Source of the DNA: Escherichia coli
GTDB lineage: Bacteria; Pseudomonadota; Gammaproteobacteria; Enterobacterales; Enterobacteriaceae
Reading direction: 5' to 3' (one strand)
DNA length: 64,000 nt
Assembly (NCBI RefSeq): GCF_003334305.1
Contig: NZ_QOWS01000003.1
The position numbers and the translations under genes were made by a program. The notes beneath the pieces are model-generated. The model had not been told where the DNA came from. It made no database searches and saw nothing but the letters and a program-made list of their open reading frames with translations. Numbering within the stretch: the stretch's first letter is position 1; each line of letters opens with the position of its first letter. Shown here piece by piece: positions 34,500 through 51,322 of the stretch.

Positions 34500-35764
34500 A
34501 TGGCTCTGAGTGATGTGAAGGTCCGTTCGGCTAAGCCGGAAGCAAAAGCCTATAAACTTACTGACGGTGAAGGCATGGTTTTGTTGGTCACCCTAATGGC
34601 TCCAAATACTGGCGACTTCGTTATCGTTTTGGCGGTAAGGAGAAGATGCTGGCGCTGGGGAAATACCCTGAAGTCTCGCTGGTCGATGCCAGAGGTCGCC
34701 GGGATGAAGCCCGTAAGTTGTTAGCTAACGGCGTCGATCCTAGTGAGAACAAGAAAGCTGTTAAGGTAGAGCATGAGCAAGAGGTGATAACGTTTGAAGT
34801 GGTAGCCAGAGAGTGGCACGCCAGCAATCAGAAGTGGTCTGCATCGCATAGCGCTCGTGTATTGAAAAGCCTCGAAGATAATCTCTTTGCTGCTATCGGT
34901 AAGCGGAACATTGCTGATCTGAAGACTCGGGATCTGCTTGTCCCCATCAAAGCGGTGGAGTCGTCTGGGCGTCTCGAAGTCGCTGCTCGTTTGCAGCAGC
35001 ATACTACCGCGATTATACGCTTTGCTGTACACAGTGGATTAATCGACTACAACCCCGCTCAAGAGATTGCTGGTGCGGTTGCTACGGCGAAAAGACAGCA
35101 TCGTGCTGCTCTGGAACTTAACCGCATTCCTGAATTGCTTCAACGCATCTATCACTATTCTGGCAGGCCGTTAACCCGACTGGCGGTTGAACTCACATTG
35201 TTAGTTTTCATCCGTTCAAGCGAGTTGCGTTTTGCTCGCTGGTCAGAAGTTGATTTTGATACTGCCATGTGGACGATTCCGGGAGAACGTGAGCCACTGG
35301 AGGGAGTTAAGCATTCTCAGCGTGGTTCGAAGATGCGGACTCCACATCTTGTACCCTTATCTCGACAAGCTCTCACCATTCTGGAAAAAATCAAAAGCAT
35401 GAGTGGAAACCGTGAGCTGATCTTCGTTGGTGATCACGATCCGCGTAAGCCAATGAGTGAGAATACGCTTAACAAGGCCTTGCGAGTGATGGGCTATGAC
35501 ACGAAAACGGAAGTGTGTGGACATGGTTTCAGGACGATGGCGTGTAGTTCTTTGATTGAATCGGGATTGTGGTCGAGGGATGCAGTAGAGCGGCAGATGA
35601 GTCATCAGGAACGTAGCTCAGTACGGGCGGCTTATATCCATAAGGCGGAACATCTTGGGGAGCGAATGTTGATGCTGCAGTGGTGGGCTGATTATCTGGA
35701 TGCGAATAGAATGGCGGCTATCACTCCATTTGACTATGCAAAGATTAATAGTTCTTTTCGATAA
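34500..35764 (+). pseudogene. P4/CP4-57-type tyrosine integrase with -1 frameshift near 34589-34591
   Basis: The N-terminus MALSDVKVRSAKPEAKAYKLTDGEGMVLLV (frame of 34500) continues only in another frame as (H)PNGSKYWRLRYRFGGKEKMLALGKYPEVSLVDAR..., which joins the 372-aa ORF. Catalytic HGFRTMA and RAAYIHKAEH are present downstream. Confidence 0.8.
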
Positions 35765-35965: not shown

Positions 35966-37435
35966 TCAAATAACTCCAAGCTTTGCATACAATTCTTTTT
36001 TCTCTTTCATGCTGTTATCCAATGGTGCTACTCGCAATGCCGCTTTCAAATAAGCCGCAGCACCAGAGTAATCACGCATTTGCTCGCAAACTAAAATGAG
36101 TTGGCTTAACACATGGAACTTCATTGGAGTTGTTTGGTTTACTTTCTCCAATAGTACTCTTGCTTCAGAATATTTCGCTTCAAGGCCAAGGATAGATGAT
36201 TCTAAATACATGGTGGCCGCGTTTTCTGCTTCAGCTTGCTTTCGTTGCAACAGCCAGAAATTTGCTTGACTGATATTGCGTAACTGTAGGTTTGCCTTAA
36301 CTATCAACTCGAACAAAGCTGCTGGTTGAGTCAATTTACCCTCAAGTAAGATCGCTTTATTATCTTCTACAACTTTTTCAAAGTCGAATAAGCGATTGGC
36401 GCGATACAAGGCAATAAGTTGCTGATGTAAAGCTTGTAGATCTTTACTGCGGCTATACTCCTGCGACGCTAATTGAGCAGCTTTTTGGTAAGATTGATCG
36501 GACATTGCTTCAAGTACCGCACTTGACCAGTCCTGAGCAGGTTTAGTTTGAAAAACGGGAGCAATAGCACCAACTTTTAATTGCTTAGTGGCAGCAGAAT
36601 CAAATGCATGAATTAAGTCGGAAATAGTGGAAAAGCGATCCTCCGCTCGTTTTTGTAAACAAGTAAGAACCACTTGTTCCAGGTCCGTATGAATAGAGCT
36701 ATTAATCTCTGTCGGAAGCTTGAAAGGTGCGTGGCGCTGAACTTGTGCTGGCGTATCATGGGGCAGCTTTCCTGTCAGCAGCTGGTATAGCAAAACACCT
36801 AAGCTATAGATGTCGCCCAATAGTAGCTCTTCCAGGCTGCCTCTACGGCTATCGACGTTGGAGAACTCTGGGGCCGAATACAGCACAGTCCCGCCATTTT
36901 CACGGGTACGAACGTAAATTTCTTCTGGTAAAGCTGAGCTGCCAAAGTCCGTCAACTTCACCAGGTCCCGCTCTCCAACCAAAATGTTATGTGGCTTAAT
37001 ATCTCCATGAGATATTGGTACTGGTAATTCGGCCAAATAATGCACAGCACAGAGCACTTGACGATATATTCTGAACAACCGTTCATAGGTCTGGCCAAAA
37101 TTACGCTGCCTGTCATCGAGCTTTTGCGCCAGGGTTTGGCTGGGAAAATACTCCATTTCAATATAGAACCATTCATTATCTATACGGCCCATATCAAAAA
37201 TTTGCACAATATTTTCGTGCGGCTCGACGTTTAAAAGCTCTTTACCTTCGGCAAGCTGACGGTCTTCCCGAGTAATATCCTTAGGGATTTTTACTGCGAC
37301 AATTTTTCCATCTTTCAGGCGTTCCGCCCGCCATACCCAGCCATGGCTGCCATCACCAAGGCATTCAAGTAACAGGTATTTGTCACCAAGGCGTTTATTC
37401 GTCCCTGGCAAAAAATGTGCTGATTTTATATTCAC
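35966..37435 (-). CDS. Hanks-type Ser/Thr protein kinase with C-terminal helical (TPR-like) repeat domain; last gene of the nine-gene operon
   Basis: 489 aa with a GTG start overlapping the upstream stop (GTGA). Kinase subdomains are LGDGSHGWVW (Gly loop), VAVKIPK, HGDIKPHNILV, DFGSS, LYSAPE and DIYSLGVLLYQLLTG. The last roughly 200 aa are alpha-helical repeats. Confidence 0.85.
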   Translation of the reverse strand: MNIKSAHFLPGTNKRLGDKYLLLECLGDGSHGWVWRAERLKDGKIVAVKIPKDITREDRQLAEGKELLNVEPHENIVQIFDMGRIDNEWFYIEMEYFPSQTLAQKLDDRQRNFGQTYERLFRIYRQVLCAVHYLAELPVPISHGDIKPHNILVGERDLVKLTDFGSSALPEEIYVRTRENGGTVLYSAPEFSNVDSRRGSLEELLLGDIYSLGVLLYQLLTGKLPHDTPAQVQRHAPFKLPTEINSSIHTDLEQVVLTCLQKRAEDRFSTISDLIHAFDSAATKQLKVGAIAPVFQTKPAQDWSSAVLEAMSDQSYQKAAQLASQEYSRSKDLQALHQQLIALYRANRLFDFEKVVEDNKAILLEGKLTQPAALFELIVKANLQLRNISQANFWLLQRKQAEAENAATMYLESSILGLEAKYSEARVLLEKVNQTTPMKFHVLSQLILVCEQMRDYSGAAAYLKAALRVAPLDNSMKEKKELYAKLGVI

Positions 37436-37974
37436 ATCAACACCTCATAGTGAATTCTGTCCAAAACAATCATGTTCAGGTTTTTGATAAATAAAAAGCG
37501 ACTAAATACCACCTCAACATCAGGAGCGGCGATTACTTGGGTACCCGTGGACGAAGTAAAACCCATACGGCATATGTCTTTCAGTTTTTGAGTATCAGGT
37601 ACACCTACTAAGCCTTGGCTCCAGGCACTGAGGACCAGGGTTTTGGGGCAATGATTCCAGCGCTGTGCTGCTTCCAGTAAGTTTTTTAATTTTTCTTCCA
37701 GCTTTTGCTGCCCCTTCGCTGAACCATCAAAGCGTTCAAATTCGATTAAACACACAGGCGATGCAGAAGATTTATGAAACCAGCCCGAGTCAGAGCGAAT
37801 ATCAGCACCAAATGTCCCTGGAGCCGGGCATTCCACTACCGCCATAAATGACTGTTCATGCCCGAATGTATTCCAAACGCTACAGCCCAGGCTGTGGACC
37901 AATACATCCTGGTCCAATAGCTTACCGCTTGCTAAAAGTGGAAATGTCTCATTTACCCAGGCAACTTCAGGCAT
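37432..37974 (-). CDS. Hypothetical protein (about 180 aa); a possible nuclease-like fold is speculative
   Basis: The ATG at 37974 is preceded by AAGGTG, which overlaps the HerA-like stop (TAAGGTGCCTATG). The track GTG start at 38031 is less likely. The only hint of a PD-(D/E)xK-type site is ADIRSD...CLIEFERFDG...K. No motif was confidently recognised. Confidence 0.55.
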   Translation of the reverse strand: MPEVAWVNETFPLLASGKLLDQDVLVHSLGCSVWNTFGHEQSFMAVVECPAPGTFGADIRSDSGWFHKSSASPVCLIEFERFDGSAKGQQKLEEKLKNLLEAAQRWNHCPKTLVLSAWSQGLVGVPDTQKLKDICRMGFTSSTGTQVIAAPDVEVVFSRFLFIKNLNMIVLDRIHYEVLM

Positions 37975-37981
37975 AGGCACC

Positions 37982-39667
37982 TTAGCCACTGAAAGAGCCC
38001 CAAACACGCAGTACCTCTGGTGATTCACCACCGTGAATTAATGCCTTACTACCAACTTTAACAAGCAGTGGTGCAGGGATTGAACGACCACACACCAAAG
38101 CTTCACCGGTTGATAAACTCGGGAGTTCCTCCAGATCAGCTTTGCTCACCATATCTGATGCTTTAGCTATAAATCGTTGATCGTCAGGGTTCTTTAAGCG
38201 CATCGTAATTAGCGTATTGCACTGAGAGGTCACATCTGAATCTAATTTCGATGGACGCTGGCTCACAATGCCAAATCCAACGCCAAATTTACGACCTTCA
38301 CCAGCGATCTTTTTAATAATGCGGTGACTGACTGCGTTGCCGCCGGCCGGGGCAAAATTATGACCCTCTTCGTAAATGATAAAGCATGGGCGCAGCGGGT
38401 CCGTTTTGCTCGAGGCTGCTTTTAATATTTCACTAGATAACAGTGCACAAATGACTTGCTTAGCGGTATCACTCAAACCTTGTAAGTCAACAACGACTAA
38501 ACGCCCCTGTTGATTGCTCGGGCGACCCACCATTTTGTAAATATCAGTTGGCTCAGCCATTGTTGCGCTGTAAAAACTTTTAGCTTCATTAAGCACACGT
38601 GAAAGCTTCATCGAGGCGACGGCGGCACTACGGCCTGATAACGCCTTCGCCTCAGCTTCAGAAAGGTCGTCCCACTCTTTTAACTCTTCAATACCATCAC
38701 CTAATAAGAAGCGTAGGCGGTTAATATCTCGTGGCTCAGTCTTATCTGCAGAGCGCCAATAACGAATTGCAACATCGAGTACTCGTTGCTGCGGTTCCGT
38801 TAAGCCAGGTAATATTTCAGCAATATCGTCCATTTCAAAATGGTCAAACTGAAGCGCTAATGGCGTATTCTTACTGGCGTATTTATGTTTAAAAGATTCA
38901 TGCTGCGGCGAGTAAACCTGAATACCTGCACCGGCGGCTTGCAGCTTTTCAAAGGTCTGTTTTATCAGTGGCAGTGCTTCTTGATCACGCTTATCGTCAG
39001 TGGCTTCTAAGAAGCTTGAGAATTGCAGATTACCGCCAGCGAGGGCTTTACCGTATTCACCATGTGGGTCAAATACTACTACCGTACCGTTATTAACCGC
39101 AACTAAACGCTCAATAATGCGGCCAACTGTATAAGACTTACCTGAACCCGTCATTGCCAGAACAGCCAAATGCTCAGTGACCAACTTGTTCACGTCAATA
39201 AAAACAGGAACTGTATTCTCACCTTTGTCGTAGCCTACTAAGTTACCTAAGTGCAAACTGGAGTGTTCATTAAATTCGTAAAAATCACTCAAAAACTGAA
39301 AATCGACGGTTTCAACAGCGGTACCCGGGTTAAGCGGGCGACGTGGAATTTTGATTTGACGAGTAACAGGATCGCGGTAACCAACCAGCTCGACCTGAGC
39401 AAACATATTCTCACCAGTTACATTCGCACCGGGCAAAAGCTCAAGCTCGGTTACACCATCGCCAAAGCCGGCGTTATAGAGCATATTAGTACGGCTTATC
39501 TTGGTCACTCGCCCCAGTACGGCGACTTGCCCCTCATCTTTGCGTTCCTGGTGCATAATGCGTACAAACTCACCACGGCGTACTGAAAACGAGTCTTGTA
39601 CAACCATAGTTAACTGACTGGCATCACCAGTGTTACCGACTAATTTACCTAAAACTTTATAAGCCAT
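37982..39667 (-). CDS. HerA/FtsK-like (DUF87-type) P-loop ATPase
   Basis: 561 aa with an N-terminal barrel-like segment, Walker A LAMTGSGKSYTV and Walker B-like PCFIIYEEGHNFAP, the typical HerA arrangement. The start overlaps the upstream gene by 11 nt. Confidence 0.8.
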   Translation of the reverse strand: MAYKVLGKLVGNTGDASQLTMVVQDSFSVRRGEFVRIMHQERKDEGQVAVLGRVTKISRTNMLYNAGFGDGVTELELLPGANVTGENMFAQVELVGYRDPVTRQIKIPRRPLNPGTAVETVDFQFLSDFYEFNEHSSLHLGNLVGYDKGENTVPVFIDVNKLVTEHLAVLAMTGSGKSYTVGRIIERLVAVNNGTVVVFDPHGEYGKALAGGNLQFSSFLEATDDKRDQEALPLIKQTFEKLQAAGAGIQVYSPQHESFKHKYASKNTPLALQFDHFEMDDIAEILPGLTEPQQRVLDVAIRYWRSADKTEPRDINRLRFLLGDGIEELKEWDDLSEAEAKALSGRSAAVASMKLSRVLNEAKSFYSATMAEPTDIYKMVGRPSNQQGRLVVVDLQGLSDTAKQVICALLSSEILKAASSKTDPLRPCFIIYEEGHNFAPAGGNAVSHRIIKKIAGEGRKFGVGFGIVSQRPSKLDSDVTSQCNTLITMRLKNPDDQRFIAKASDMVSKADLEELPSLSTGEALVCGRSIPAPLLVKVGSKALIHGGESPEVLRVWGSFSG

Positions 39668-40814
39668 TATTCAATCCCTCATCGAGGCCTGCCAACCACC
39701 CTGCCTCAATATCATTATTCTTTAGTGCCTGGTGTAAACCCTGGCGATAAAACGTAGCAAATTTAGGTAAAATACCAAGCTGTTGATAACCAAGTAATTG
39801 TGGCAACGGCATTGCATTACCTTTGTTTTGCATATCCAGCACCATCAGGCGAGAGGCAACTAAATCGAGATCAGCACTTTTCCATTCTGGTTCGTCACCC
39901 GCTAATTGCACCATTTTTATCTGTCCACCTCGGGCACTACGGAAGTGAAAACCAATTAGACCTTGCTTAGCTTCAATATTGGGTTCAATGCGCTTTTCTT
40001 GTTCAGACAAACGAAATGCGATGGTGCGCGAATAGTTGCCTAAAATGCCATTGATAAATCGCAAATCTCCCACGCCAACCAAACTTTCATCCAGTCCTTC
40101 CAGATTTTGCATCAACTCTTTAGAAAACCCATCAGATGCTAAAATTTGTTTGCGTCCTTGTTCGGTACGTAAATCTTGTTTGGCGATACTTACAATGGCA
40201 CTAAAGCGCTCAGCCAAAATGCTCGCAAGTACTACACCATTTTGATTCCAGGGAAAAATTCTGGAGCGATGGTTTTGCCAAAAAGTTTCTATCACTTGTC
40301 TGGTTTTTTCGTACTCTTGTTTATGACGGACATTTCTCTCCAGCGGAGCCATATCCCGTGCTAAAAACAACGGCGTATCCAGCAAAATTAAATCGCCAGG
40401 CTCATAACCTAAAAGTTTTTTCTCAACTAACTGATAAGCCTGACGAATTTCAATTAAATCAAGCCGTTTACGCTGAGCTTCAAAATCAATATCATCCAGT
40501 TCTGATACCGAGTCGCTACCCACCGTGCTGACTTTATTGTCATCTATTAACAAATCTGTGCGCACTGCTGCACTGGCATAAATAAAACCACCCAATACCT
40601 TGTCTAAGCACGATTTAGTCGCAATACCGGCTACGCGTAAATTAACAATTGTGGGCTTGGGGACCGCTTTCACTAAGCCAGCATCACGGAATAGCGGCGC
40701 CACTTGCTCAATATCACGGACCTGTTTAAGCAAGCGTCCTGCACTTCCCGGTAAGCGAAGCTGGCTATCGATGGCGAGCGATTGCGCTAAATTCATCGTT
40801 TTGTTCTCATTCAT
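39657..40814 (-). CDS. Hypothetical protein (about 385 aa) in the nuclease-partner slot upstream of HerA
   Basis: The ATG at 40814 lies 2 nt after the upstream TAA. There is no clear catalytic motif. LILLDTPLFL faintly recalls the NurA hhhDGxL motif. The gene position matches NurA, DUF4297 or SIR2 partners in HerA systems. Confidence 0.5.
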   Translation of the reverse strand: MNENKTMNLAQSLAIDSQLRLPGSAGRLLKQVRDIEQVAPLFRDAGLVKAVPKPTIVNLRVAGIATKSCLDKVLGGFIYASAAVRTDLLIDDNKVSTVGSDSVSELDDIDFEAQRKRLDLIEIRQAYQLVEKKLLGYEPGDLILLDTPLFLARDMAPLERNVRHKQEYEKTRQVIETFWQNHRSRIFPWNQNGVVLASILAERFSAIVSIAKQDLRTEQGRKQILASDGFSKELMQNLEGLDESLVGVGDLRFINGILGNYSRTIAFRLSEQEKRIEPNIEAKQGLIGFHFRSARGGQIKMVQLAGDEPEWKSADLDLVASRLMVLDMQNKGNAMPLPQLLGYQQLGILPKFATFYRQGLHQALKNNDIEAGWLAGLDEGLNNGL

Positions 40815-40816
40815 GC

Positions 40817-41665
40817 TTATAGCGTTCCTGTGTGTAGCTGCTCGCCAAGTAATGGGGCATAAGCCCAATATTGCGAGGCTTGTAGGCATGTTTTACCGGT
40901 AGCTGTTATGCCCGCGTCGTCGATAAAATCGTGCTGCCGCAACATCTCACCCCGCTTGACAATATCAAGGCTATTAACATCAAACATCAGCTTAACCGCA
41001 TTATGCTCAGACAACGCTTGTAAGTTCATGCCACCGCCAGCGTAGAGTAATAGCAATACAACTAGATCGTGCTTATCTGGCGTGTAGTCAGTTGATGGCG
41101 CTTTAGGTTCGATTATTCGTTCAGCAATGCCTGCATGGTCCACAAACCAATTCAACCAGCTCACCAGGAGCTCACTATGATCGAGTAAAGTCAGCGACCA
41201 CAAAGGTAACGTGGTAAAGGCTAATAGCCCACTGTTGCTGTGTTTTCGTATGTAGCGGGTATGCACTACATCACCGGCCTGGTGCTGGTAGCGATCTGCG
41301 CTGCCAGTAAAGCCAGCAATAGCCTGGTCTGTTTCACTGGCTAGCAAAGCGGTTAGCCCCGGTTCCTGCCCCCTCAAGCTCGCTGGTACTAACTGCCAAT
41401 CCAGTGGATAGGGCAATTGCGCTAATAAGGTAAATTGTTCTGCTTTCAGGTTTATTACCAAAGCGGCACAACCTGCCTGCATAGCCCAGTGATACAGGTG
41501 CTGCATAGTATTAGCGTCAGTCAACTCTTCTGCTTGCACTATTAACAAACCGCTGGCTGGCGGCGAGCTAATCCAATCCTTCATTAAGGGGGTAGCCCCC
41601 GCAACAGTTTGCAAAAAACGGCCTTTACGATTACTGGCCAGTGCCGCAGATAAATAACGACTCAT
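40817..41665 (-). CDS. Hypothetical protein (about 282 aa)
   Basis: The ATG at 41665 is preceded by a GAGGTGA Shine-Dalgarno sequence that overlaps the TAG of the 1428-aa gene. No recognisable motif. Confidence 0.55.
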   Translation of the reverse strand: MSRYLSAALASNRKGRFLQTVAGATPLMKDWISSPPASGLLIVQAEELTDANTMQHLYHWAMQAGCAALVINLKAEQFTLLAQLPYPLDWQLVPASLRGQEPGLTALLASETDQAIAGFTGSADRYQHQAGDVVHTRYIRKHSNSGLLAFTTLPLWSLTLLDHSELLVSWLNWFVDHAGIAERIIEPKAPSTDYTPDKHDLVVLLLLYAGGGMNLQALSEHNAVKLMFDVNSLDIVKRGEMLRQHDFIDDAGITATGKTCLQASQYWAYAPLLGEQLHTGTL

Positions 41666-41675
41666 CGCGTCACCT

Positions 41676-44600
41676 CTACAAACCAGTGGCAAAGGTAAGG
41701 CGCATTTTTACAATGCCTTTGTCTACAAGTCCTTTCTGTTGCTCAGGTGTTAACACGGGTTCCTGATTTTGGCTCAAAGCCTTATAAATCGGTTGCCAAT
41801 CCGCCAGTGTTAAGCCTGTATCATTTAATATTTGCTCACCTTGACTCTGCCATTTGGCCTGGGTGCTTTCACACACCTGTTGAAGTTCTCTGACACCCAA
41901 ATTGCTCACATCCTCCAGAGTCAACGCTGCTGGTTCCGCTTGCTTTTGAGAAGCCAATAGCGGTTTTAATAACGGCAGCCAGCTGTTTACCTGTGCGATG
42001 GAGTTGCGTCTTACTTGGTTTAGACGCTCTTCAATTTTAAGTAGCTGGCCTTGAATCGGTGTAAGTTGACCGCGTGCCGGTTTTAAAAGCTCTTCTGGTA
42101 AATCCCGTAACGATGAAAACTGCCCATTGCGCAAACTGTTTTGCATACTTTGACGCTTGCTCTCTGCATCACTGGGGAGATCGGCAATAGCATCTTCAAT
42201 GAGCTGTAATTTCATTACCAGTTTTGGTAGCTCTGCAATGTCATCGGCGAACTGATACTCAGCCGTGGCGCTACTAAGCCATTCTTGCAGTTGTTGTGCA
42301 CGTAGTTTTTGCTCTGTGAGGTTATTAACCAGCTTACTAAATCGTTCTTTGCAGTTGCGGTAGCTGGACAAAATATGCCCCTGAATCTCCGCTATCGGCA
42401 ACTGTTGATCATTGTGCAGGTTTAAACCCACTTCTTGCGCTAAGGCTGAAAGCTTGTCATGCGCTCTACCTAAATCGAGTTTACGCAGGTAATGCAGTAA
42501 GGTATCGCTATCTGCTTGCTGCTCTTTTCGGCCAGTGGCACTGCTGGTATCGTCTTTTAACGCTCCATCTAAAATATGACCTATGGTGCGCAGCGTGTTG
42601 GTGTACAGACGTTTCGGAAAATTCGTCAGCGGGGCACACTCTGTTTCAACATCTATGATTAAATCAACGAGTCGGTTGTTGATACGCTCAGCGCTGCACT
42701 CAACAAACTCGGCAAATAAACAGGCCTGTTCAATCCGTTGATAAAGCGAGGTCGTTTTGTCTTCTAAGCTGAGAATATGGGCATCTTTTAGCATAGGCCT
42801 GGAACTATTAAGCGGTTTAACCTTTGCTACCAGCTCCAGCACTTCAGCGCGTTTGTGGATAAGCCCTGCCAATACTTTCGTGTCGTTGGCCTCGACCATA
42901 TCAGCCAATTGTTCTTCTTGCTGTTTGAGCACGTTAAATAGCGATTGTGCTTTTTCCAGCTGCTCTTTAGCTTCCACGGTGACGAAACCCAGCTTATTTT
43001 TACCCAGTGGCGCGAACATTTCATTAATGCGTGCATAACCATACACGCGGCTCATGACTTCCACATTGGCTGCATAGCTGCCCATATCGTTACCACGGAA
43101 CCAGTTTTGCGCTTCTCTAATGGCATTTTCTAAGCGGGAGCGCGGGTAGTGCTCCCAAATTGCCTGTTTTTCTGTTGGATTGGTTAAAGTGAGTAAGTTC
43201 AGCTCTCCACACCACCACATCCAGTCATTAAACACGCCTTTGGCGGTAACACTCGTTTCAGCCACATAGGCGAAATAAAACTGTTGCTTAAAGCCTTCGA
43301 ATTGCCACTTGTGCTTTTTATTAGGGTGAGCAATACGGGCTAAAAATAATGGGATCTGCGCCTGGCTTCGCTGCACATTATTAAGTTCAGTAAATAGCCC
43401 GGCATGTTCATCGGCAGTGTAACCTTTGGCAATATAGCTGCCCGGCACCTTAAGTTTATCCAACAAGCTGCTCAGCTCATTCACTGGCACGCCGTGTTGC
43501 TGCTGTAAATCGAGAATGCCATTTAACTCAGGGTGAGCAATGGCCAGCTGATACCAGCCTTTAAACAACAGGTCTCGGTCATTCGGTGATAATTTACCAT
43601 CTACCTTTAACGGCCAGGCAATTAAACCGCGCTGCTGCAAACGCTGGCGCCACTTGTGAATGGCATCCGTGGCAAAGGTTGTCAGGGCATGCAGCTTGTT
43701 TTTGAATTTCGCGGTAAAGCTGTCGGCAGTTAAATTCACGCCGTGCAACTGACATGCTGCCAAACTTAAGCCAATACGCTCTAACTGGTCTGCTTCGCTT
43801 GGGTTGACATAATGCAGCAGTATCGCATCACGCAACTCATTTCTTTCATCCAGTCGGCTGTATTGCTCCATGAGATGTGCAGAAGCAGTTAACGCTAATA
43901 CTGGCGTGCGACCATTTTGGTGGCTGTGGTTTGCCGCAAAGGTGTGAAGATTGTTCAGCTCAATTAGGTTGCTGACCCAGGCAAACAAGGCTTTACCTTC
44001 TGGGTGAAGCTTAAATCCATCCAGGGTAAGTAAACCACCCTGGCGGCCACGGGGCTCGGTTAAAATGGCCAAAGGTGCATCGTCGCTGCCCGCTTTATTA
44101 CTCAGCAAGTTTTCATCATAGGTCCAGTTGTTATCAAGTAATCTCACAAAGCCCGTTACACGGGCTAATGCCTTGATGAGCGGCTTCTGGCTACTTTGTT
44201 TGCTAAGTTCACTCATTGCCTGTTCATGAGCGTCGCCCATGGCGGGATCTTTAAAAATCAGTGAGTTTTGCTGGGCACTGCGATAGCGCAAATCCAGGCG
44301 CAGTAACATCGCCACACTGGGGCCAATATGCGTTGCTTCGCTGGCGTCCAGTTCGGTAGTTTCACCCACTAGCTTGTGCCATAAGGCATCGGCAGCGAAT
44401 TCAATCGCTGGGTGGTCATACAGCAAGCTGAGTAAGTATTTAAACTCACCTTTTGACAGAGGTAGTAATACCGCGCCTTTATCGCCGCTTGCGGCTTGTT
44501 CTTTAATTGAAAAAGTACGCAGGTTATCCAGCAAAGTATCTAAGTTCAGCGCTTGATCTACTGCAGGGTAGTACCATTCATCTTTATCGCGGCGGAATTT

Positions 44601-45962
44601 GGCTTGCTCCAGGGCTTGTCGGCACTGTAGGCGGTCAATGCTCAGTTTGCGGTAATGAGCGGCTATGGGTTCCAGATCTTCGTTTTTCAGCGCCAGCAAT
44701 TCTGTGGCATAGCCCATTTCAGCTAAGCGCACGGGTAATTGGCCGTAGAGCAAACTACGACATTCGGTCAATAGTGCCTGGTCGCGAGTTTGAATGCCTT
44801 CTATCGCGCCTTTATCCAGCACATGCCTGGCTACGCGGCCAGAGCCTGCCAGCACAGCTTCAAATAAATCGCCCACATCCTTGATACTGCGGCCTGCTTG
44901 TTGGTATTGGCTCAGCACTGCATCCACATTAGCCATGACCACGTTAAACCAACCGAAGTTGGCACCACTCATGGCGTATGCAGCTTCCACTAAACCAGCA
45001 GGGTAATTAAAACCCAGCTTGCCGTCTTTTAAGAGGCTTGCCACATAGTCTGATACATCGGCAAAGGCATTATGCTCAAGTTCCACTAACTCAAAGCGGC
45101 GTGCGACCGATTGAATTTCGCGCAATTGCTGGCCAAGCAGTGGTGAACACAGCGCTACATAGCGCAACCATGGAAGTTTACGGCGAGGGTCTTCCTCTTT
45201 AATTGCTTTACCAATCAGGCGAATGGCCTGGCCATCGAGGCGTTTATTTTGTTCATCTTCCAGGCCAAAGGTGGCGGCTTCTGCAACGGTTTCCAGCTCA
45301 TCCAGCACCACCAACATATACTGCACGCCAAAGCTCTTTAATACTTTATAGGCGGCTTGCACCAAACTGACTACCAGCGTTTGGTCAGTATAGAGGTCTT
45401 CTTCGCTGTGGTTGGCGTTCAGCTGTAAGGCATCTGCTAACAGTTCAGATTTAAAGCCAAATGGCATTAAGCGTTCATAGGCTTGTTTGGCAATTTCACT
45501 TTGAATCGATCCATCAAAGGTTTGGGTGGCCAGTGGTAATAGCGCCTGATATAAACCAAAAGCAAACCAGTTATCCGAGTTTTGATAATCTGATGCCACT
45601 TGCGAGTAGCGAATGTAGAGCGCCAGGTATTTGTCTTGCGTGTCGCGATTAAACAGCTGCTTATCGTGCAGTTGGCCTTGTTCGTCGCGGACAAACCAGC
45701 CCCTTGAACAGTCGTTAATTTGTGCAACCAATTCATGGCCTAAACGTGATTTACCCCGACCCCATTCGGCTTCGACGGCAAACACATGGGCAAAGCGATC
45801 ATCGTCGTGATCCACCGTATGCAAAAAGGTTTGAAAGCGTTTAAAAAAGCGGCTCTGGCCCACTAACGGGTCGCGAGGTGGATAATCTGATACGCCCGTC
45901 GCCGCCCAGCGATGTTGTTTTGCCAGGCTATCAACCATCTGTTCGTTTAATTCAAAACTCAT
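41676..45962 (-). CDS. Giant (1428 aa) P-loop NTPase with long helical C-terminal region
   Basis: Walker A-like EAEWGRGKSRLGHE sits near residue 65 and Walker B-like YMLVVLDELE near residue 215. The remainder is helix-rich with no motif I can name. Its ATG overlaps the upstream TGA (ATGA). Confidence 0.7.
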   Translation of the reverse strand: MSFELNEQMVDSLAKQHRWAATGVSDYPPRDPLVGQSRFFKRFQTFLHTVDHDDDRFAHVFAVEAEWGRGKSRLGHELVAQINDCSRGWFVRDEQGQLHDKQLFNRDTQDKYLALYIRYSQVASDYQNSDNWFAFGLYQALLPLATQTFDGSIQSEIAKQAYERLMPFGFKSELLADALQLNANHSEEDLYTDQTLVVSLVQAAYKVLKSFGVQYMLVVLDELETVAEAATFGLEDEQNKRLDGQAIRLIGKAIKEEDPRRKLPWLRYVALCSPLLGQQLREIQSVARRFELVELEHNAFADVSDYVASLLKDGKLGFNYPAGLVEAAYAMSGANFGWFNVVMANVDAVLSQYQQAGRSIKDVGDLFEAVLAGSGRVARHVLDKGAIEGIQTRDQALLTECRSLLYGQLPVRLAEMGYATELLALKNEDLEPIAAHYRKLSIDRLQCRQALEQAKFRRDKDEWYYPAVDQALNLDTLLDNLRTFSIKEQAASGDKGAVLLPLSKGEFKYLLSLLYDHPAIEFAADALWHKLVGETTELDASEATHIGPSVAMLLRLDLRYRSAQQNSLIFKDPAMGDAHEQAMSELSKQSSQKPLIKALARVTGFVRLLDNNWTYDENLLSNKAGSDDAPLAILTEPRGRQGGLLTLDGFKLHPEGKALFAWVSNLIELNNLHTFAANHSHQNGRTPVLALTASAHLMEQYSRLDERNELRDAILLHYVNPSEADQLERIGLSLAACQLHGVNLTADSFTAKFKNKLHALTTFATDAIHKWRQRLQQRGLIAWPLKVDGKLSPNDRDLLFKGWYQLAIAHPELNGILDLQQQHGVPVNELSSLLDKLKVPGSYIAKGYTADEHAGLFTELNNVQRSQAQIPLFLARIAHPNKKHKWQFEGFKQQFYFAYVAETSVTAKGVFNDWMWWCGELNLLTLTNPTEKQAIWEHYPRSRLENAIREAQNWFRGNDMGSYAANVEVMSRVYGYARINEMFAPLGKNKLGFVTVEAKEQLEKAQSLFNVLKQQEEQLADMVEANDTKVLAGLIHKRAEVLELVAKVKPLNSSRPMLKDAHILSLEDKTTSLYQRIEQACLFAEFVECSAERINNRLVDLIIDVETECAPLTNFPKRLYTNTLRTIGHILDGALKDDTSSATGRKEQQADSDTLLHYLRKLDLGRAHDKLSALAQEVGLNLHNDQQLPIAEIQGHILSSYRNCKERFSKLVNNLTEQKLRAQQLQEWLSSATAEYQFADDIAELPKLVMKLQLIEDAIADLPSDAESKRQSMQNSLRNGQFSSLRDLPEELLKPARGQLTPIQGQLLKIEERLNQVRRNSIAQVNSWLPLLKPLLASQKQAEPAALTLEDVSNLGVRELQQVCESTQAKWQSQGEQILNDTGLTLADWQPIYKALSQNQEPVLTPEQQKGLVDKGIVKMRLTFATGL

Positions 45963-47260
45963 AACGACGATCCTTGAAGGTTTATTCTATTGGCGGCGCG
46001 TTTTTTATTGGCATAGCAGTTTTGCGCCAGTTGCTTAATGGTCCGTTGTAACGTTTGGCTTTTGTAGCCAAATAGTGGTGCTAACGGCAGGCTATAACAG
46101 GCATCGCTGAAGCTTGTATGAATTCGATATTGGCCGGCCTCTCCACGACCCGCCTCGGTAAATTGCCAGATTTTTTTTGCCAACAATTCGGCAATGAATG
46201 AGCTCAGGACGCGGTTTAGGCGGTTGATGCTTTCCGTGTTCGCATCGAGTGCCGGGTAGAGGGGTATATTGAGCTCACCGAGCAGAAGCACAAGAAACTC
46301 GGCCAAACTACCCAGACTCACCTCATCACCTTCAATGCCCTGTACCGCCACATTTATTTGACCGGGGGCAAAGGCATTTTGCCCGGCAGGTAAGGTGAGC
46401 AACAAACCGCCACGTTGCTCGGCAGCCCAGGCATCTTGCACAAAGATAATTAGACTGAGTAAAAATAACCAGGGCTGTTGGGCGAATAGCTCGGTAAGCG
46501 GCATGTTGTCATGACCCGAGCGGGACACCAATAACCAATCGGCATTGGGTTTAAGGTTATGTTCATCAAGCAAGGTATTAGGGAGTGCTAACAACCGCCC
46601 ACTACACCAGTTATTTGTCAGTTGTTTTGCGGTGACATCCACCGCTTGTATAGGTGCCGGTGGTTCATTTTGTTCGCTCACGGTAAACAAGGTATAGCTG
46701 GTGCGCAAAATACGACATAGCGCGGGAATGGCAGCATTGTCGTTTAGGCTATGACCGAGCAAATCGCGTTCGGTTTGTGCCAGAGGGCCGGCAATGATTT
46801 GCGGCGTGGTGGCAGTGCTTTCCAGCTGGGCTAAGACCCATTCACTGGCATTGCCCAGTTGCTGAATGAGTTTAACCAATACCATTGTGTCACTCATCGT
46901 GCCTGCTTCCTGGCAGCGAGCGGCGGCTAAATTGATCCAATGTTGGCGAACATCTGGGTTTAAGCCCAACAACGCTAATTGCCATTCACCTGACTGGCTT
47001 AAATCGTTAAAGGCATCAAGCAATGGTGCAGTGAGGCTAAAGGCGCTAACGATATCCGTTTCAGCGTCGTTCTTTTTCGGCTGTATTATTGGTTGTAGCA
47101 GTGACCTAAGGGCAGGCACAGCCGCCAATAACAATGCTGCTTTGTTGGCGTTCAAACCACCTTGTTGCCAAAGCTGCAGGCAGAGGTTAAGTGCCGCTTC
47201 GCTATTTACGGGGTCGTTATATTGCCTGGTTGTACTGCTGTCCGTGCCCCTTGTCTCCAT
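45959..47260 (-). CDS. Hypothetical protein (433 aa)
   Basis: The ORF starts 2 nt after the S-subunit TAA and ends in an ATGA overlap with the giant NTPase gene. No recognisable motif. Confidence 0.6.
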   Translation of the reverse strand: METRGTDSSTTRQYNDPVNSEAALNLCLQLWQQGGLNANKAALLLAAVPALRSLLQPIIQPKKNDAETDIVSAFSLTAPLLDAFNDLSQSGEWQLALLGLNPDVRQHWINLAAARCQEAGTMSDTMVLVKLIQQLGNASEWVLAQLESTATTPQIIAGPLAQTERDLLGHSLNDNAAIPALCRILRTSYTLFTVSEQNEPPAPIQAVDVTAKQLTNNWCSGRLLALPNTLLDEHNLKPNADWLLVSRSGHDNMPLTELFAQQPWLFLLSLIIFVQDAWAAEQRGGLLLTLPAGQNAFAPGQINVAVQGIEGDEVSLGSLAEFLVLLLGELNIPLYPALDANTESINRLNRVLSSFIAELLAKKIWQFTEAGRGEAGQYRIHTSFSDACYSLPLAPLFGYKSQTLQRTIKQLAQNCYANKKRAANRINLQGSSL

Positions 47261-47262
47261 CT

Positions 47263-48738
47263 TTACTCTTCAGCCTCCGCTTGCGCCGCCTCTTCCAGCA
47301 AACTGTATAACTCATCCACATCGCTAAATAGCGGTGTGGCACCTTCAATGGCATAACCCTCAGCGCTCAGTTTGCTTAAAATCGCTTGATCAAAGCTGCT
47401 GTCGCCATCTTCCAGGGCTTGTTGGGCCTGGATTAGTTGTTGCTCAGTCAGTTGGCCTTCGATTAATGACTCAACTAGAGTTTTGGCAGATGCTGTTAAC
47501 TTTTTTGCATATGCTGCCGTAGTAACGGCTAGTCTCAGCTTACTTCCTATTTCTCTATTCTTCGCTATGTCAATCGGAATCAGAATATTTAACAGGTTTT
47601 CTGAAGTCACTTTTGGTACAACGCTGCCAGTAGTCACACCTTTCCAACACGGAAAGTGTTTATCCAGGAACCTACAAATAGACTCAATATCATATTCATC
47701 TTTTACCTTTAAAACCCAAACATGGTTGTTTGCCCAAAACTTTCCATCAGCTACATTTGCACAGCCAATAGAGCCATCTTGCGCAATAATCAGATATTTA
47801 CCGTTGAAATTGAATTCGGTATGAGTATCTATTGGACCTGATGCGCCATAGTAAAAATATGGTCCGGGTACTCTGTCTTCCGATTTAATAGGGTCGCCAC
47901 ATTTGCATTTACTAATGAAATTAGATAGTTTTGATGAATTCCTAAAGGTCATTTGACTATCGGCCGCACGTGCAAACTCAGGAGCTAAAGACACTGCTGA
48001 TAATACCTGTTGTTTCATTCTTCTAGGTTTCAATGTTAATGAATCAACAAGGTTGAAGTGAAATAAATCTTTAATTTTTCTATCAGCCATTCCTTCAAGT
48101 CGTTTCGCCCAAGCGCGTAACTGCTCGGCTTGGCGAACTTTATCCCCGATGTATTTTTGGGCTAGAGGTAAAACTTTAGGAACCGCTAGCGAGCGGACAC
48201 TTGGGAAGTCAATTGCAGGGCGAGTTGCGCCATATGCTTCCTTCCAGATCGCTACTTGTCCGGTTTTGCTATTCAAATATGCCACCAAGAAATAGGCGTC
48301 AACTTTTTTGGGATCGGGCTTGAATCTGACTGAGTGCTGACTAATGTTGGCCGGTAGATGTTTAGCTGACACAACAGCCGATTTACCAAATTTTGCACCA
48401 GTAATCGTAAGTAAAACGTCGCCATCCACTAATCGGCTGCGCTTTAATTTTTCATCATCTTCATCGTTAATAAAAACAGCTTCTTCAGCTTGCAAGAACA
48501 TTTCTTCAACTTCAGAAGTGCGATAAAACTTAACACGGCCTTTTTCTAAATAATTTGCTCCTAAAGGTGTTGCGCCACTAGCCACCCCGCGCTTTGAATC
48601 AATTACCGCTTCTAGGGGCAAAGCACCTAGGTTGTCTTTTATCTTATTAATTTGTCTTTCAAATCGCGGTTGATAGTGCCAAGGATCAATCCGCCTTTCA
48701 GACAATTGTTCGGGTGTTCTTTTAAAAATAGTTGCCAT
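47263..48738 (-). CDS. Type I-like restriction-modification specificity (HsdS-like) subunit with two target-recognition domains
   Basis: About 491 aa. TRD1 carries RIDPWHY..., GDVLLTITGAKFGKSAVV and NISQHSVRF. A conserved helical spacer (QKYIGDKVRQAEQLRAWAKRLE) follows, then a second TRD (YYGASGPI...IIAQDGSIG...NNHVWVLK) and a C-terminal helix plus acidic tail. The ATG overlaps the methyltransferase TGA (TGATG). Confidence 0.8.
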   Translation of the reverse strand: MATIFKRTPEQLSERRIDPWHYQPRFERQINKIKDNLGALPLEAVIDSKRGVASGATPLGANYLEKGRVKFYRTSEVEEMFLQAEEAVFINDEDDEKLKRSRLVDGDVLLTITGAKFGKSAVVSAKHLPANISQHSVRFKPDPKKVDAYFLVAYLNSKTGQVAIWKEAYGATRPAIDFPSVRSLAVPKVLPLAQKYIGDKVRQAEQLRAWAKRLEGMADRKIKDLFHFNLVDSLTLKPRRMKQQVLSAVSLAPEFARAADSQMTFRNSSKLSNFISKCKCGDPIKSEDRVPGPYFYYGASGPIDTHTEFNFNGKYLIIAQDGSIGCANVADGKFWANNHVWVLKVKDEYDIESICRFLDKHFPCWKGVTTGSVVPKVTSENLLNILIPIDIAKNREIGSKLRLAVTTAAYAKKLTASAKTLVESLIEGQLTEQQLIQAQQALEDGDSSFDQAILSKLSAEGYAIEGATPLFSDVDELYSLLEEAAQAEAEE

Positions 48739-50885
48739 CACTCACCCCGCTTATAAGCCGATACAATCTTATCCAGATCGTTTGCGACACCGGCGTTATA
48801 GTCTTCGATATTGTTTTTCACCACATAACCCAATGTTTCAGCCACTGCCATAAACACGTCGGTTTGTGGCTCGGGCAAAAATTGCTCTGGCTGGTTGGGG
48901 TTAGCATGGCGTTTTTGTAAATACAAAATCGAGGTTTTGGCCCCCGTACCGGAGAGTTTAAAGCAGTCGCTCGGCAATGAAATTACTGCTTTTACAATAG
49001 CTTTACCGCCAACAAACTCGCCGGTTTTTTCGTCTTTTTTCCCCATAATGTACTCACGGACATAACGGTCGCCGGAGTTACATAAAATACCATCAGGCAG
49101 CACTATTAACAGGCGGCCACCGGGTTTAAGCAGTTGCAGGCAGCGGTCGATAAAAAGTACTGCTGGGTCAATAGTGGCACCTACCGGTTGCCAGTTGCCC
49201 TTGCTATCGGGCTTGCTGCCCAGCGCGAGCCCTGCGGTTGTAGGCTGCAGGCTGTAAAACGGCTTTTTATCAGTCCCGCCCGTTCTGCGCAAATCGGTAC
49301 GGTAGCCCGCCCATTTAGGCTCGCCGTTTTCATCCAGCTCTAAATCACCGATATCCTGCCACTTCATTTTCACGTGGTCATACCAGGCGTTGTAGCTATC
49401 AACGACTTTTTTGGTCGGACGAAAACCACCGAGCACTTGCTCCATATTGGCTTCGTAATTGGCTTTTGAGTTTTGACCATTTTTGCCTTTATCAAATTTA
49501 GGCGTACCGAACGGCGGGTTGGTGCAAATCAGGTCAAAGCTATTCGGCTTCAGAGCGTTAGTAGTGAGTGAGTTGTCGGTATAAAAAATCTGCGCTTTGG
49601 GGGCACCTTGCAATGCCATATTCACGCGGGCCAGCATTACCATGCGTGGTGCAGCATCGGCACCGGTAAATGCACAGTCGCGTAATTTTTGTTTCAATGA
49701 TTCTTTTTTATCGTCGGCCAGCACCAGCTTAAAATCGATCCATTTATCAATCTGGCTTAACGCCACCGAGCCAAAACCAAAGGAGCCACAGGTGGGGTCG
49801 CAGAAACGAAAATCGCCATTGGCTAAGCGCGATCGCATTTCATCGTCATCGTCGATGTCGTGCATAGCAATTTCTAGCATGGCCTGTTTTACTGGGTTTG
49901 GTGTTAAATAAACGCCAAGGCCACCTTTGGATTCAAAGTTAGCGCGTAGGAATACATCAAACACTCTGCCTAGTAAATCTCCTGACACATCAGCCAACGT
50001 GCCGTGTTCTTTCGCGATTTTACCGTCGTTGGTTTTTACCGGACCCAGGTTTTGTATTGCTTCCAGCAAATCCTGATAGTTTTTCGCAACAGACAGTCGC
50101 AGGTGTGTTTCTTTACTAAAGATGGGGTTACGTGAGCCATCATCTGAGATCACAACGTAGTTTTCGTGGCTTTTAAATTCCTCAAAGGCGGCTTTGATTT
50201 GGGCAACGGCTTTATCGCCGTGGCTCTCCACATATTGCCAATCAAAGACATCACGAAAACGCAGGGTATTTCCCTCATCATCTTTAAAGGTAAGGTCTTC
50301 ATCGTGATGCAGGCGGAAAGTTTCTAAAAACAGAAGCTTAGCTACTTCTTCAATAATGTCGTTCTTGTCGTTTACCTTGTCTTTGGTAACGCGATAAACA
50401 TTTTCATGGAAGGCATCAAATCGCTGCATTAAGCGTGTATAAACACGCATCGACCAGCGAAAGGTTGGATCACGCTCCATGCGATCAAAGCTACGTAATT
50501 CTTCCAGACCAGGCAGGGTATCTGCACCGTGGGTACCGTCAGATCCATCGGCACCGAACAAGGCCAAAATACGTTGGTTCAAGCCATCGTCCACAACGGC
50601 ATATACTGGCCAGTCACCTTCGATATCACTTAACAGCTGATAGGCTAAATCATCAAACTTTGCAGTGTCAGCGGCGTATTCCCAATGGCCTTCTGTCAGC
50701 GCAATCAACATGACTGGTGGCGTTAAGTTGCCTTCAACCAGGCCTTGAATGAGACCAGCCTTGGCGAATTCATGCTCGGGTAATTCGACCAATGGCTGAG
50801 TAAACTCGGAGTGCTGTTTGACCAGTTTATTGAACAGTGCTTCTAGCTGCTGTTGCGGGTCTTGTTTTTTTGCTTCTTTTGCCAT
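48738..50885 (-). CDS. N6-adenine DNA methyltransferase (gamma class, HsdM-like) with N-terminal extension of about 330 aa
   Basis: 715 aa with motif I FCDPTCGSFGFG, motif IV LICTNPPFG, and an HsdM-like segment DLLGRVFDVFLR...GVYLTPNPV upstream. Confidence 0.85.
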   Translation of the reverse strand: MAKEAKKQDPQQQLEALFNKLVKQHSEFTQPLVELPEHEFAKAGLIQGLVEGNLTPPVMLIALTEGHWEYAADTAKFDDLAYQLLSDIEGDWPVYAVVDDGLNQRILALFGADGSDGTHGADTLPGLEELRSFDRMERDPTFRWSMRVYTRLMQRFDAFHENVYRVTKDKVNDKNDIIEEVAKLLFLETFRLHHDEDLTFKDDEGNTLRFRDVFDWQYVESHGDKAVAQIKAAFEEFKSHENYVVISDDGSRNPIFSKETHLRLSVAKNYQDLLEAIQNLGPVKTNDGKIAKEHGTLADVSGDLLGRVFDVFLRANFESKGGLGVYLTPNPVKQAMLEIAMHDIDDDDEMRSRLANGDFRFCDPTCGSFGFGSVALSQIDKWIDFKLVLADDKKESLKQKLRDCAFTGADAAPRMVMLARVNMALQGAPKAQIFYTDNSLTTNALKPNSFDLICTNPPFGTPKFDKGKNGQNSKANYEANMEQVLGGFRPTKKVVDSYNAWYDHVKMKWQDIGDLELDENGEPKWAGYRTDLRRTGGTDKKPFYSLQPTTAGLALGSKPDSKGNWQPVGATIDPAVLFIDRCLQLLKPGGRLLIVLPDGILCNSGDRYVREYIMGKKDEKTGEFVGGKAIVKAVISLPSDCFKLSGTGAKTSILYLQKRHANPNQPEQFLPEPQTDVFMAVAETLGYVVKNNIEDYNAGVANDLDKIVSAYKRGE

Positions 50886-50935: not shown

Positions 50936-51322
50936 CTAATTTATCAGTACCAGCAAGGGGCCTTTAATCTCTATCTGCGCGTGCTTCTGTGCCAGTTTGC
51001 GTATCTGCTGTTCACTGGTCGTAATACCAGCAGGGAGCTTTTTCAGTACTTGTGCAAGGGGCATGCGCCCACCAGCTTGATGCAACAATGATACCAAATG
51101 TGCCGCGATATCAGGTATAACCTGGTACGTTGCCGTTGTGGGCCCTTTTAGATGATTACTTTGAGGCAATGAGGCAAGCCATAGCGAAACTTGAGACTGG
51201 CTAAAGCCAAGTGTTTGCCAGAGGGTTTGGTTCTCATTAAATACAACGGCGGCGCTTCTGGGAGTTGCTGTTTGCTGAGTTATTAGTTGTTCCAGGCTTT
51301 GTCGCTGGTATTCATGGGTCAT
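50936..51322 (-). CDS. Hypothetical 128-aa protein translationally coupled to McrC
   Basis: Its ATG overlaps the McrC TGA (ATGA). No motif was recognised. It ends 50 nt upstream of the methyltransferase ATG. Confidence 0.55.
   Translation of the reverse strand: MTHEYQRQSLEQLITQQTATPRSAAVVFNENQTLWQTLGFSQSQVSLWLASLPQSNHLKGPTTATYQVIPDIAAHLVSLLHQAGGRMPLAQVLKKLPAGITTSEQQIRKLAQKHAQIEIKGPLLVLIN

Follow-up and report, generated by a model that had tools for sequence, protein, structure and literature searches.

A giant P-loop ATPase and its two partner genes at the centre of a ten-gene, probably methylation-based defence operon on Escherichia coli integrative islands

To which system does a 1428-residue ATPase belong when it matches no protein family model, and when its start and stop codons are both tied to genes that match none either? 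Three such genes lie in a 64,000-nt stretch of Escherichia coli DNA (contig NZ_QOWS01000003.1, assembly GCF_003334305.1; this whole stretch is hereafter called the window), a piece of chromosome that is 100% identical to strain A7, where the same open reading frames (ORFs) are listed by RefSeq as 'hypothetical protein'. The giant ATPase and its partners are the central module of a ten-gene, horizontally transferred operon carried on integrative islands, and this operon most likely acts as an anti-phage or anti-plasmid system based on methylation, of the kind represented by the methylation-associated defence system (MADS), bacteriophage exclusion (BREX) and type I restriction-modification (R-M). 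The true unit is the ten-gene operon, which appears to have been glimpsed before in the literature as 'MADS-like'. An initial annotation had described the three genes and had not linked them to the methylase and specificity genes on one side or to the HerA, NurA-like and kinase genes on the other, and it is these genes that make sense of the locus.

The giant ATPase and its partners

The three genes are encoded on the minus strand. The giant gene (41676..45962), which starts with ATG, appears to encode a divergent KAP/BrxC-like ATPase followed by alpha/beta and winged-helix-like domains and then by a coiled-coil-like C-terminus; its upstream partner is p433 (433 aa, 45959..47260) and its downstream partner p282 (282 aa, 40817..41665). 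At positions 45959-45962 the letters ATGA hold both the start codon of the giant gene and the TGA stop of p433, and the TAG stop of the giant gene is followed by AGGTGACGCG and then by the ATG of p282, so that a GAGGTG Shine-Dalgarno sequence overlaps the giant stop. For p282 we kept the ATG used by RefSeq, the mechanically called ORF extending back to a TTG at 41692. A pattern-plus-tblastn scan with one genome per species returned 59 loci encoding a homologue of the giant. Given that RefSeq annotates the ORFs of 433, 1428 and 282 aa identically and that full-length homologues of the giant occur in the 59 species-level loci, the trio is confirmed as real and as far beyond chance; the ORFs, the overlap and the Shine-Dalgarno sequence are all present as first noted.

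The ATPase signature is confined to the N-terminal part of the protein, as had been claimed from the letters. It comprises a Walker A motif (AEWGRGKS, residues 65-72, 45747..45770 on the minus strand), in which W67, G68, G70 and K71 are invariant with the distant subfamily included, and a Walker B motif (LVVLDELE, residues 217-224, 45291..45314, minus strand), in which D221, E222, E224 and T225 are invariant. Neither motif varied at its key residues (WGxGKS and DExET) in alignments of 21 and of 85 homologues or in one extended to relatives of 21-31% identity; the WG.GKS pattern was found in 55 of 56 giant homologues. Conservation is highest over about residues 17-360 (44883..45914, minus strand), where invariant columns are dense and which comprise the ATPase core and an almost invariant N-terminal motif, YPPxDPLVGQ; in the main-clade loci, drawn from several phyla, the ATPase region at the N-terminus shares 57-82% identity with that of E. 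coli. The invariant pattern as a whole, VGQ...WGxGKS...DExET...LC[ST]...RR, is presumably what a KAP/ORC/BrxC-like ASCE NTPase would have.

Beyond these motifs the giant is isolated. It had no match at E ≤ 0.01 in Pfam, NCBIfam or PADLOC, and PDB searches with the whole protein returned only the coiled coil of haemagglutinin HA2, at residues 1181-1294 with E about 1e-3, the ATPase-only profile returning nothing. This match falls in the coiled-coil-like C-terminal region (about residues 1181-1428, 41679..42422, minus strand) and is read as compositional or coiled-coil noise. When residues 1-420 were compared by HMMER with 1.84 billion representative proteins, 129 matches were obtained at E ≤ 1e-3, and the full-length ones all measured 1269-1645 aa; judged by these searches, the family therefore seems to be small, of fixed architecture and isolated, nothing in the sequences connecting it with the large ATPase families. 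Collections of plasmids (PLSDB) and phages (INPHARED) contained no match to the giant. Similarity to SMC/Rad50 or HsdR proteins was absent from Pfam, NCBIfam, PADLOC, PDB sequence and fold searches, and the giant is accordingly not a fusion of these well-known domains; neither was any similarity to DUF499 or Dnd proteins found.

The assignment to a BrxC/PglY- or KAP-type class survives in part. The ATPase class appears to be about right: Pfam KAP_NTPase aligned to residues 58-224 in 17 of 21 homologues, always below its gathering score (best E 3.7e-4; for the window giant E 0.14, 11.9 bits against a cut-off of 20), PADLOC BrxD gave a weak match in one distant homologue, and by fold the resemblance to BrxC and ORC is weak. 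The giant shares with KAP proteins (PF07693) the WGxGKS form of Walker A as well as this sub-threshold match, but differs from them by about 1000 further residues of unrelated domains. Membership in BREX or phage growth limitation (Pgl) systems, by contrast, did not hold, since PglZ, a PglX-type methylase and DUF499 were all unmatched.

The remainder of the protein had been described as mostly helical, which the predicted structure does not bear out. In an AlphaFold2 model of residues 1-1200 (mean predicted local distance difference test score, pLDDT, 79.9; residues 1201-1428 lie outside the model) several alpha/beta and winged-helix-like domains appear besides helical bundles, and only the last ~250 residues of the protein look coiled-coil-like. 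The most conserved stretch of the giant was the worst modelled, with pLDDT below 50 at residues 21-72 and 225-298, whereas the more variable remainder reached 80-95; low sequence variation could explain this, or folding of the stretch on a partner or on nucleotide.

The two partners evolve faster. The p433 gene is present in 57 of the 59 loci at a median identity of 38%, and p282 in 55 at 32%, and the divergence of each tracks that of the giant (correlation of pairwise distance matrices, r=0.90 for p433 and r=0.89 for p282); in every locus with enough flanking sequence both are conserved with it. The initial annotation would have counted flanking ORFs that do not travel with the giant as a refutation; this was not what the loci showed, and co-conservation in fact reaches well past these two genes. 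Their description as motif-less was fair, for neither had a match at E ≤ 0.01 in Pfam, NCBIfam or PADLOC. Nor did p433, for which the homologue search yielded 120 near-identical E. coli sequences, have a PDB match or any consistent weak matches in these collections; p282 has no family and no relative among solved structures, the only similarity being a match to DUF4350 that 4 of 19 homologues show (E 0.005 at best). Trp, Arg and Glu positions are conserved in both alignments, with no catalytic motif that could be named, and the C-terminus of p282 looks winged-helix-like by eye in the alignment. We also considered whether a fused p433 forms the ~315-residue N-terminal extension of a 1645-aa relative of the giant (P0162) and rejected this, as hhalign found no similarity; the giant of a distant variant of the locus (L061) carries a ~315-residue N-terminal extension that is unrelated to p433.

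Ten genes inherited as a block

Is the trio a module in its own right? It lies within ten co-directional ORFs on the minus strand (35966-51322) that are separated by gaps or overlaps of -11 to +51 nt and run in the order 128-aa protein, N6-adenine methyltransferase, HsdS-like subunit, p433, giant, p282, NurA-like p385, HerA, p180 and Ser/Thr kinase; in strain A7 (NZ_CP028767) an identical copy occupies 585007-600363. The gene junctions are equally tight in relatives, and inside the operon promoter-like and terminator-like sites were not above shuffled expectation. In 53 of the 59 loci the seven core genes from p433 to the kinase are all present in the same order and orientation, the other 6 being truncated contigs, and all ten genes were detected in 44. 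Hosts include Gamma- and Betaproteobacteria, Cyanobacteria, Acidobacteria, Fibrobacter and Desulfobacteria, with Pseudomonas species among those carrying giant homologues (P0070, L018 and L023), and the median identity of the giant to the E. coli protein in the species-level loci is 54%. For every gene except that of HsdS, pairwise distances correlate with those of the giant at r=0.85-0.98; HsdS is hypervariable (median identity 32%, r=0.40). The congruence of all matrices but this one indicates that the operon is inherited as one block while its specificity subunit is shuffled.

Within E. coli the same contrast between a stable block and a variable recognition subunit is visible. At least 80% of the giant gene is carried by 208 of 5426 complete genomes (~4%), and 217 of the 230 genomes with any giant match have it at ≥99% identity. 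The hsdS allele of the window is found in full in only 36 E. coli genomes, the others keeping about 61%, 21% or 14-18% of it. These partial matches indicate that target-recognition domains have been exchanged within the species, a pattern expected of an active and diversifying recognition subunit. A 15-kb operon is thus found in about 4% of complete E. coli genomes and in species of at least five phyla.

The initial annotation had treated the trio as self-contained, and it could be argued that a BREX-like or KAP-type module of three genes acts alone here and that the surrounding genes belong to separate systems. The coupling of the three genes at start and stop and the weak similarities to KAP, BrxC and BrxD-type proteins speak for such a module. 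However, coupling of equal tightness is seen throughout the ten genes; in loci with enough flank the trio never occurs without the genes for the NurA-like protein, HerA, p180 and the kinase; and the kinase, p180 and NurA-like protein diverge with the giant (r=0.94-0.98) as closely as the two flanking partners, or more so. As PglZ, PglX and DUF499 were not found either in the Pfam, NCBIfam and PADLOC searches, we regard a module of three genes acting alone as very improbable.

Distant variants of the locus bear on a further possibility, namely that two or three independent systems are packed together: an orphan methylase-specificity pair, an embedded giant trio and a HerA-NurA-kinase system. 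Four distant giants (25-33% identity over the N-terminal 420 residues) could be placed on contigs, and all were found in the same type of operon, laid out as a gene of ~390 aa, the giant, a gene of ~260-300 aa, the NurA-like gene, HerA, a gene of ~200 aa and the kinase. Three of the four keep the core order. The L062 locus reads 122 aa, methylase, HsdS, 348 aa, 348 aa, giant, 257 aa, NurA-like, HerA, 210 aa and kinase, and L065 has the same core; p282 was detected in both. In L061 a 275-aa gene precedes HerA and none lies between HerA and the kinase. In the fourth variant (L064:1071-16097), whose giant is 25% identical over the N-terminal 420 residues and whose contig ends before any HerA or kinase position, the type I-like pair is replaced by a DpdA-like gene (PF23859), a D12-class methylase and an unannotated 1488-aa protein. 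The core of giant and NurA-like genes may hence be coupled to other DNA modifications, for example 7-deazaguanine in L064.

Some of these data would suit independent systems. Candidate systems embedded inside R-M-like loci are known, and the modification module is evidently exchangeable, as the DpdA and D12 methylase genes of L064 illustrate. Moreover, between the specificity gene and the giant region L061 carries a 628-aa ABC/OLD-type ATPase together with a 338-aa gene (L061:4685-7587), and the two resemble a defence module nested in another system; the best PADLOC matches of the ATPase were NsnB (3e-70) and HEC-03B (1e-57), and its identification as an equivalent of Mad3 of MADS was rejected, since mad3 reached only 5e-9, on the P-loop. 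Against independence, p433 to the kinase form an unbroken core in all 53 loci with enough flank, three of four distant variants keep its order, the distance matrices are congruent, and the giant family, with 129 representatives in 1.84 billion proteins, was of this type in all four contexts inspected. The conservation data argue against independent co-located systems, and we judge that reading to be improbable.

Six of the ten proteins, the 1428-residue ATPase among them, have no family model. The first gene of the conserved block (gene 1, 50936..51322, minus strand) encodes a 128-aa protein of unassigned function, possibly a regulator, which had no family match at E ≤ 0.01 in Pfam, NCBIfam or PADLOC and which lies upstream of the methylase in 44 of the 59 loci, McrBC-free loci included, at a median identity of 38%. 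Gene 2 (48738..50885, minus strand) encodes a 715-aa N6-adenine DNA methyltransferase of HsdM or type I-like character (Pfam N6_Mtase, E 5.8e-22), which matched the PADLOC MTase_I model PDLC03023 over its full length with 1577 bits; its median identity is 70%, and the NPPF motif at 456 is kept in 51 of 51 homologues. Gene 3 (47263..48741, minus strand) encodes the 492-aa HsdS-like specificity subunit with two target-recognition domains (Pfam Methylase_S; PADLOC Specificity_I, 544 bits).

At the other end, gene 7 (39657..40814, minus strand) encodes p385, a 385-aa protein with a median identity of 68%, and its 3' end overlaps the start of herA by 11 nt. The window protein itself had no match at E ≤ 0.01 in Pfam, NCBIfam or PADLOC. 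We call p385 a NurA-like nuclease, a prediction that draws on an AlphaFold2 model (78 sequences, pLDDT 67.9), because the top seven Foldseek matches to it in the PDB were all NurA, including Sulfolobus solfataricus NurA 2ygk (E 1.8e-4, probability 1.00) and the NurA chain of the Deinococcus HerA-NurA complex 7f6d, followed by Argonaute PIWI domains; because three homologues are named 'NurA domain-containing protein' in UniRef; because 2 of 17 homologues have a sub-threshold match to Pfam NurA (E 0.058); and because E105, D107, D108, D146, E277 and H290 are invariant in 78 sequences, position 101 being Asp in 77 of the 78. Gene 8 (37982..39667, minus strand) encodes a 561-aa HerA-type hexameric translocase ATPase (Pfam DUF87, 1.2e-44, and HAS-barrel, 8.8e-7; PADLOC HerA, 1.2e-56, and mad8, 6.6e-26), the most conserved gene of the block with a median identity of 87% and a Walker A motif, MTGSGKS, in 55 of 55 homologues. 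Gene 9 (37432..37974, minus strand) encodes p180 (180 aa), without a match in Pfam, NCBIfam, PADLOC or the PDB; it shows a D...ExE...K pattern in which D62, E78, E80, R81, K91 and K95 are invariant (median identity 49%, r=0.955 with the giant) and which suggests, purely as a hypothesis from this pattern, a PD-(D/E)xK-type nuclease. Gene 10 (35966..37435, minus strand) encodes a 489-aa Ser/Thr protein kinase (Pfam Pkinase, 2.1e-34) whose best PADLOC match was mad6 (1.2e-45) and which scored 66.7 bits with NCBIfam PglW. Its VAVK, DFG and APE motifs are present, and it is of the non-RD type, the catalytic loop having HGD in place of HRD in each of the 54 homologues checked; its median identity is 60% (r=0.975 with the giant), and in relatives the C-terminal part has TPR-family matches.

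Known systems and a possible mechanism

Four of the ten proteins are homologous to components of MADS, an eight-gene Pseudomonas aeruginosa system (SMC4386, mad1-8) that restricts phages experimentally and in a methylation-dependent manner. Like MADS, the window operon combines a methylase, a specificity subunit, a kinase and a HerA-like ATPase, and PADLOC mad2, mad5, mad6 and mad8 matched its methylase, HsdS, kinase and HerA, respectively, less strongly for mad2, mad5 and mad8 than for mad6; NCBIfam MAD2, MAD5 and MAD6 scored 111.6, 90 and 116.9 bits, far under their equivalog cut-offs of 720, 400 and 460. It differs from MADS in that Mad3 (an AbiEii/OLD-type ATPase-Toprim) and Mad4 (DUF4276) had no counterpart in Pfam, PADLOC or NCBIfam searches of the operon, and Mad7 (DptG/DndG-like), which is mandatory in the detection model of the MADS authors, had no PADLOC match among the unnamed ORFs of the operon, for which no other PADLOC model matched either. 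In place of these three, the operon has p433, the giant, p282, the NurA-like protein and p180.

A closer likeness is offered by a 'MADS-like' locus of eleven genes, madl1-madl11, that was found by inspection in 10 P. aeruginosa islands (Maestri et al., bioRxiv 10.1101/2023.03.30.534895) and for which a WYL regulator (madl1), a methylase (madl3), a specificity subunit (madl4), an ATPase (madl6), a helicase/translocase (madl9), a kinase (madl11) and hypothetical proteins were predicted. Compared by its text description, its order of methylase, specificity, x, ATPase, x, x, helicase/translocase, x and kinase is that of the window, and it adjoins a type IV R-M system in a defence island, as the window operon adjoins McrBC. 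Because the gene order is the same, the giant is most likely the equivalent of Madl6, and p433 and p282 would be Madl5 and Madl7. The two differ at the start, the 'MADS-like' locus beginning with a WYL/HTH regulator and the window having the 128-aa ORF with McrC and McrB upstream of it and no WYL match; upstream of the Pseudomonas locus L023 there was no WYL regulator, an integrase and a DUF3987 protein being found there. The 'MADS-like' description neither identified the NurA-like gene nor accounted for the giant.

Identification of the locus with BREX/Pgl, with a type I R-M system or with DndFGH was considered and rejected. PglZ had no match among 19 ORFs searched against Pfam or among the operon ORFs searched against PADLOC and NCBIfam; where BREX/Pgl has a single-chain PglX-type methylase, the window has a type I-like methylase with a separate HsdS; and BrxC/DUF499 models did not match the giant in Pfam, NCBIfam or PADLOC, the effector here being HerA-NurA-like. 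Type I R-M systems share with the operon an HsdM-like methylase and a two-domain HsdS with allele shuffling, but the operon had no ResIII, helicase or HsdR match and contains seven other genes instead. In DndFGH/DptFGH, DndG has a triple winged helix-turn-helix, DndF is a P-loop kinase with Asn in Walker B and DndH is a restriction-endonuclease-HerA fusion (PMC10853773), whereas the HerA of the window stands alone, the Walker B of the giant has DE and not N, and PADLOC, NCBIfam and PDB profiles gave no Dnd or Dpt match. The architecture of the window operon is not described in that survey of Dnd systems and HerA capture, and a literature search with the RefSeq accessions of six operon proteins found nothing.

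The HerA-NurA pair has relatives elsewhere that invite another reading. Systems such as archaeal and Deinococcus HerA-NurA, which act in end resection, and the defence pairs SIR2-HerA and DUF4297-HerA also have a stand-alone HAS-barrel HerA, and in the window the HerA gene overlaps a NurA-like one; here, however, the pair is embedded in an operon with a methylase, a kinase and a giant ATPase, and p385 is too diverged for Pfam NurA. Given that HerA-NurA is the double-strand-break resection pair of archaea and Deinococcus (NCBIfam names, PDB 7f6d) and that the loci adjoin integrases, the operon might have no role in immunity at all and might instead be a DNA repair or mobile-element maintenance machine that serves integrative elements, with the giant as an SMC- or partition-like scaffold. 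A dedicated methylase with a swapping specificity subunit, a defence-island context (McrBC and a phosphorothioate-dependent HNH enzyme), a patchy distribution across and within species, the four parts homologous to MADS components and the failure to find SMC/Rad50 similarity all stand against such a machine, as do the conservation data, and we give it hardly any weight.

For a methylation-based defence system, which we consider probable, the following mechanism can be proposed. The methylase and the two-domain specificity subunit would mark a strain-specific bipartite host site with N6-methyladenine. The giant, p433 and p282 would serve as an ATP-driven sensor and loader, or as a scaffold, through which an effector would be engaged once the methylase-specificity complex has recognized an unmethylated site; this role is suggested by analogy with BrxC in BREX and with MtsA and MtsB of the BREX-related system MANTIS (Gao_RL), in which loading of the methylase on DNA needs the ATPase MtsA as well as its co-factor MtsB. 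The effector would be the HerA hexameric translocase with the NurA-like nuclease, possibly aided by p180, which would degrade the foreign DNA, and the Ser/Thr kinase would regulate the complex or provide a second, PglW-like output. The setting of the operon on a leuX island with an integrase, McrBC and a phosphorothioate-dependent HNH enzyme supports a function in defence.

More speculatively, the giant with p433 and p282 could represent a new class of ATP-dependent reader and loader that couples a methylase-specificity complex to HerA-NurA and a kinase, so that a KAP/BrxC-like switch would license restriction in the form of processive exonucleolytic destruction of unmethylated DNA; we advance this tentatively. 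To our knowledge, HerA-NurA destruction licensed by such a switch is undescribed for any R-M, BREX, DISARM or MADS system. The seven-gene core could, moreover, read other DNA marks, as the DpdA-like gene and D12 methylase of L064 would suggest.

Several points weigh against the proposed mechanism and should be set beside it. The NurA assignment comes from a model of medium quality (pLDDT 67.9) and from structural matches with a template modelling score of about 0.3. The KAP matches of the giant all fall under the Pfam gathering score, and Foldseek searches with its model returned nothing at E<0.1. An adaptor role for p433 and p282, which have no detectable fold or family, is a guess, and action of the methylase-specificity pair together with the giant is a proposed link. 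Finally, the 'MADS-like' locus was noted by inspection and is likened here by gene order and not by sequence.

A signalling function, which overlaps with the mechanism just proposed, deserves consideration as well. The giant might sense a phage protein or DNA damage in the manner of STAND/KAP-like proteins and activate the kinase, perhaps with HerA-NurA, to kill or arrest the cell, methylation only shielding self DNA from the nuclease. The weak KAP, ORC and NLR-type similarities of the giant would fit abortive infection of this sort, as would the fast evolution of p433 and p282, which is expected of proteins that meet phage products, and the relationship of the kinase family to the defence kinases PD-T4-6 and PglW. 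Yet the ATPase region of the giant, with its 57-82% identity to that of E. coli across the main clade, is unlike typical hypervariable sensors, and allele swapping and hypervariability are confined to hsdS, which points to discrimination by DNA sequence. We therefore think abortive infection unlikely as the primary function, and retain methylation-based restriction as the probable one.

If the operon is a defence system, it adds a large methylation-linked member to the known repertoire of E. coli, and if the proposed coupling is true, it would be the first case of a HerA-NurA-type motor-nuclease wired to type I-like modification through a giant ATPase and a kinase. It would also make E. coli a tractable model in which to ask how, in BREX, MADS and related systems, an unmethylated site that has been recognized comes to be restricted without a classical restriction endonuclease, and the swapping hsdS alleles would permit direct tests of motif against allele.

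The island and its neighbourhood

The island is inserted at leuX, a tRNA-Leu(CAA) gene on the plus strand (34214..34298; ARAGORN and RefSeq), next to which lies its tyrosine integrase, also on the plus strand (34646..35764; Pfam Phage_integrase). According to RefSeq the integrase is frameshifted, so that this lineage may have lost the ability to excise the island. On the other side of the operon the minus strand (51319..55829) encodes McrC (447 aa), McrB (691 aa) and a phosphorothioate-DNA-binding HNH endonuclease (309 aa), identified by Pfam McrBC, AAA_5 and HNH_2 and by RefSeq names, and beyond these are the core nan genes. McrBC also adjoins four Enterobacterales loci (L002, L006, L007 and L013) and, on the opposite strand, L061, and a McrB-like match was seen in L024.

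Just outside the island lies yjgR (31367-32917), a core E. coli gene for an ATPase with a HerA-like C-terminal domain (Pfam HerA_C, E 6e-254); it is unrelated to the HerA of the island, and its position beside the island appears coincidental. Two further parts of the window, 18001-24000 and 58001-62000, are low in G+C (0.37-0.41, against about 0.52 in core regions), which suggests that they are additional horizontally acquired segments.

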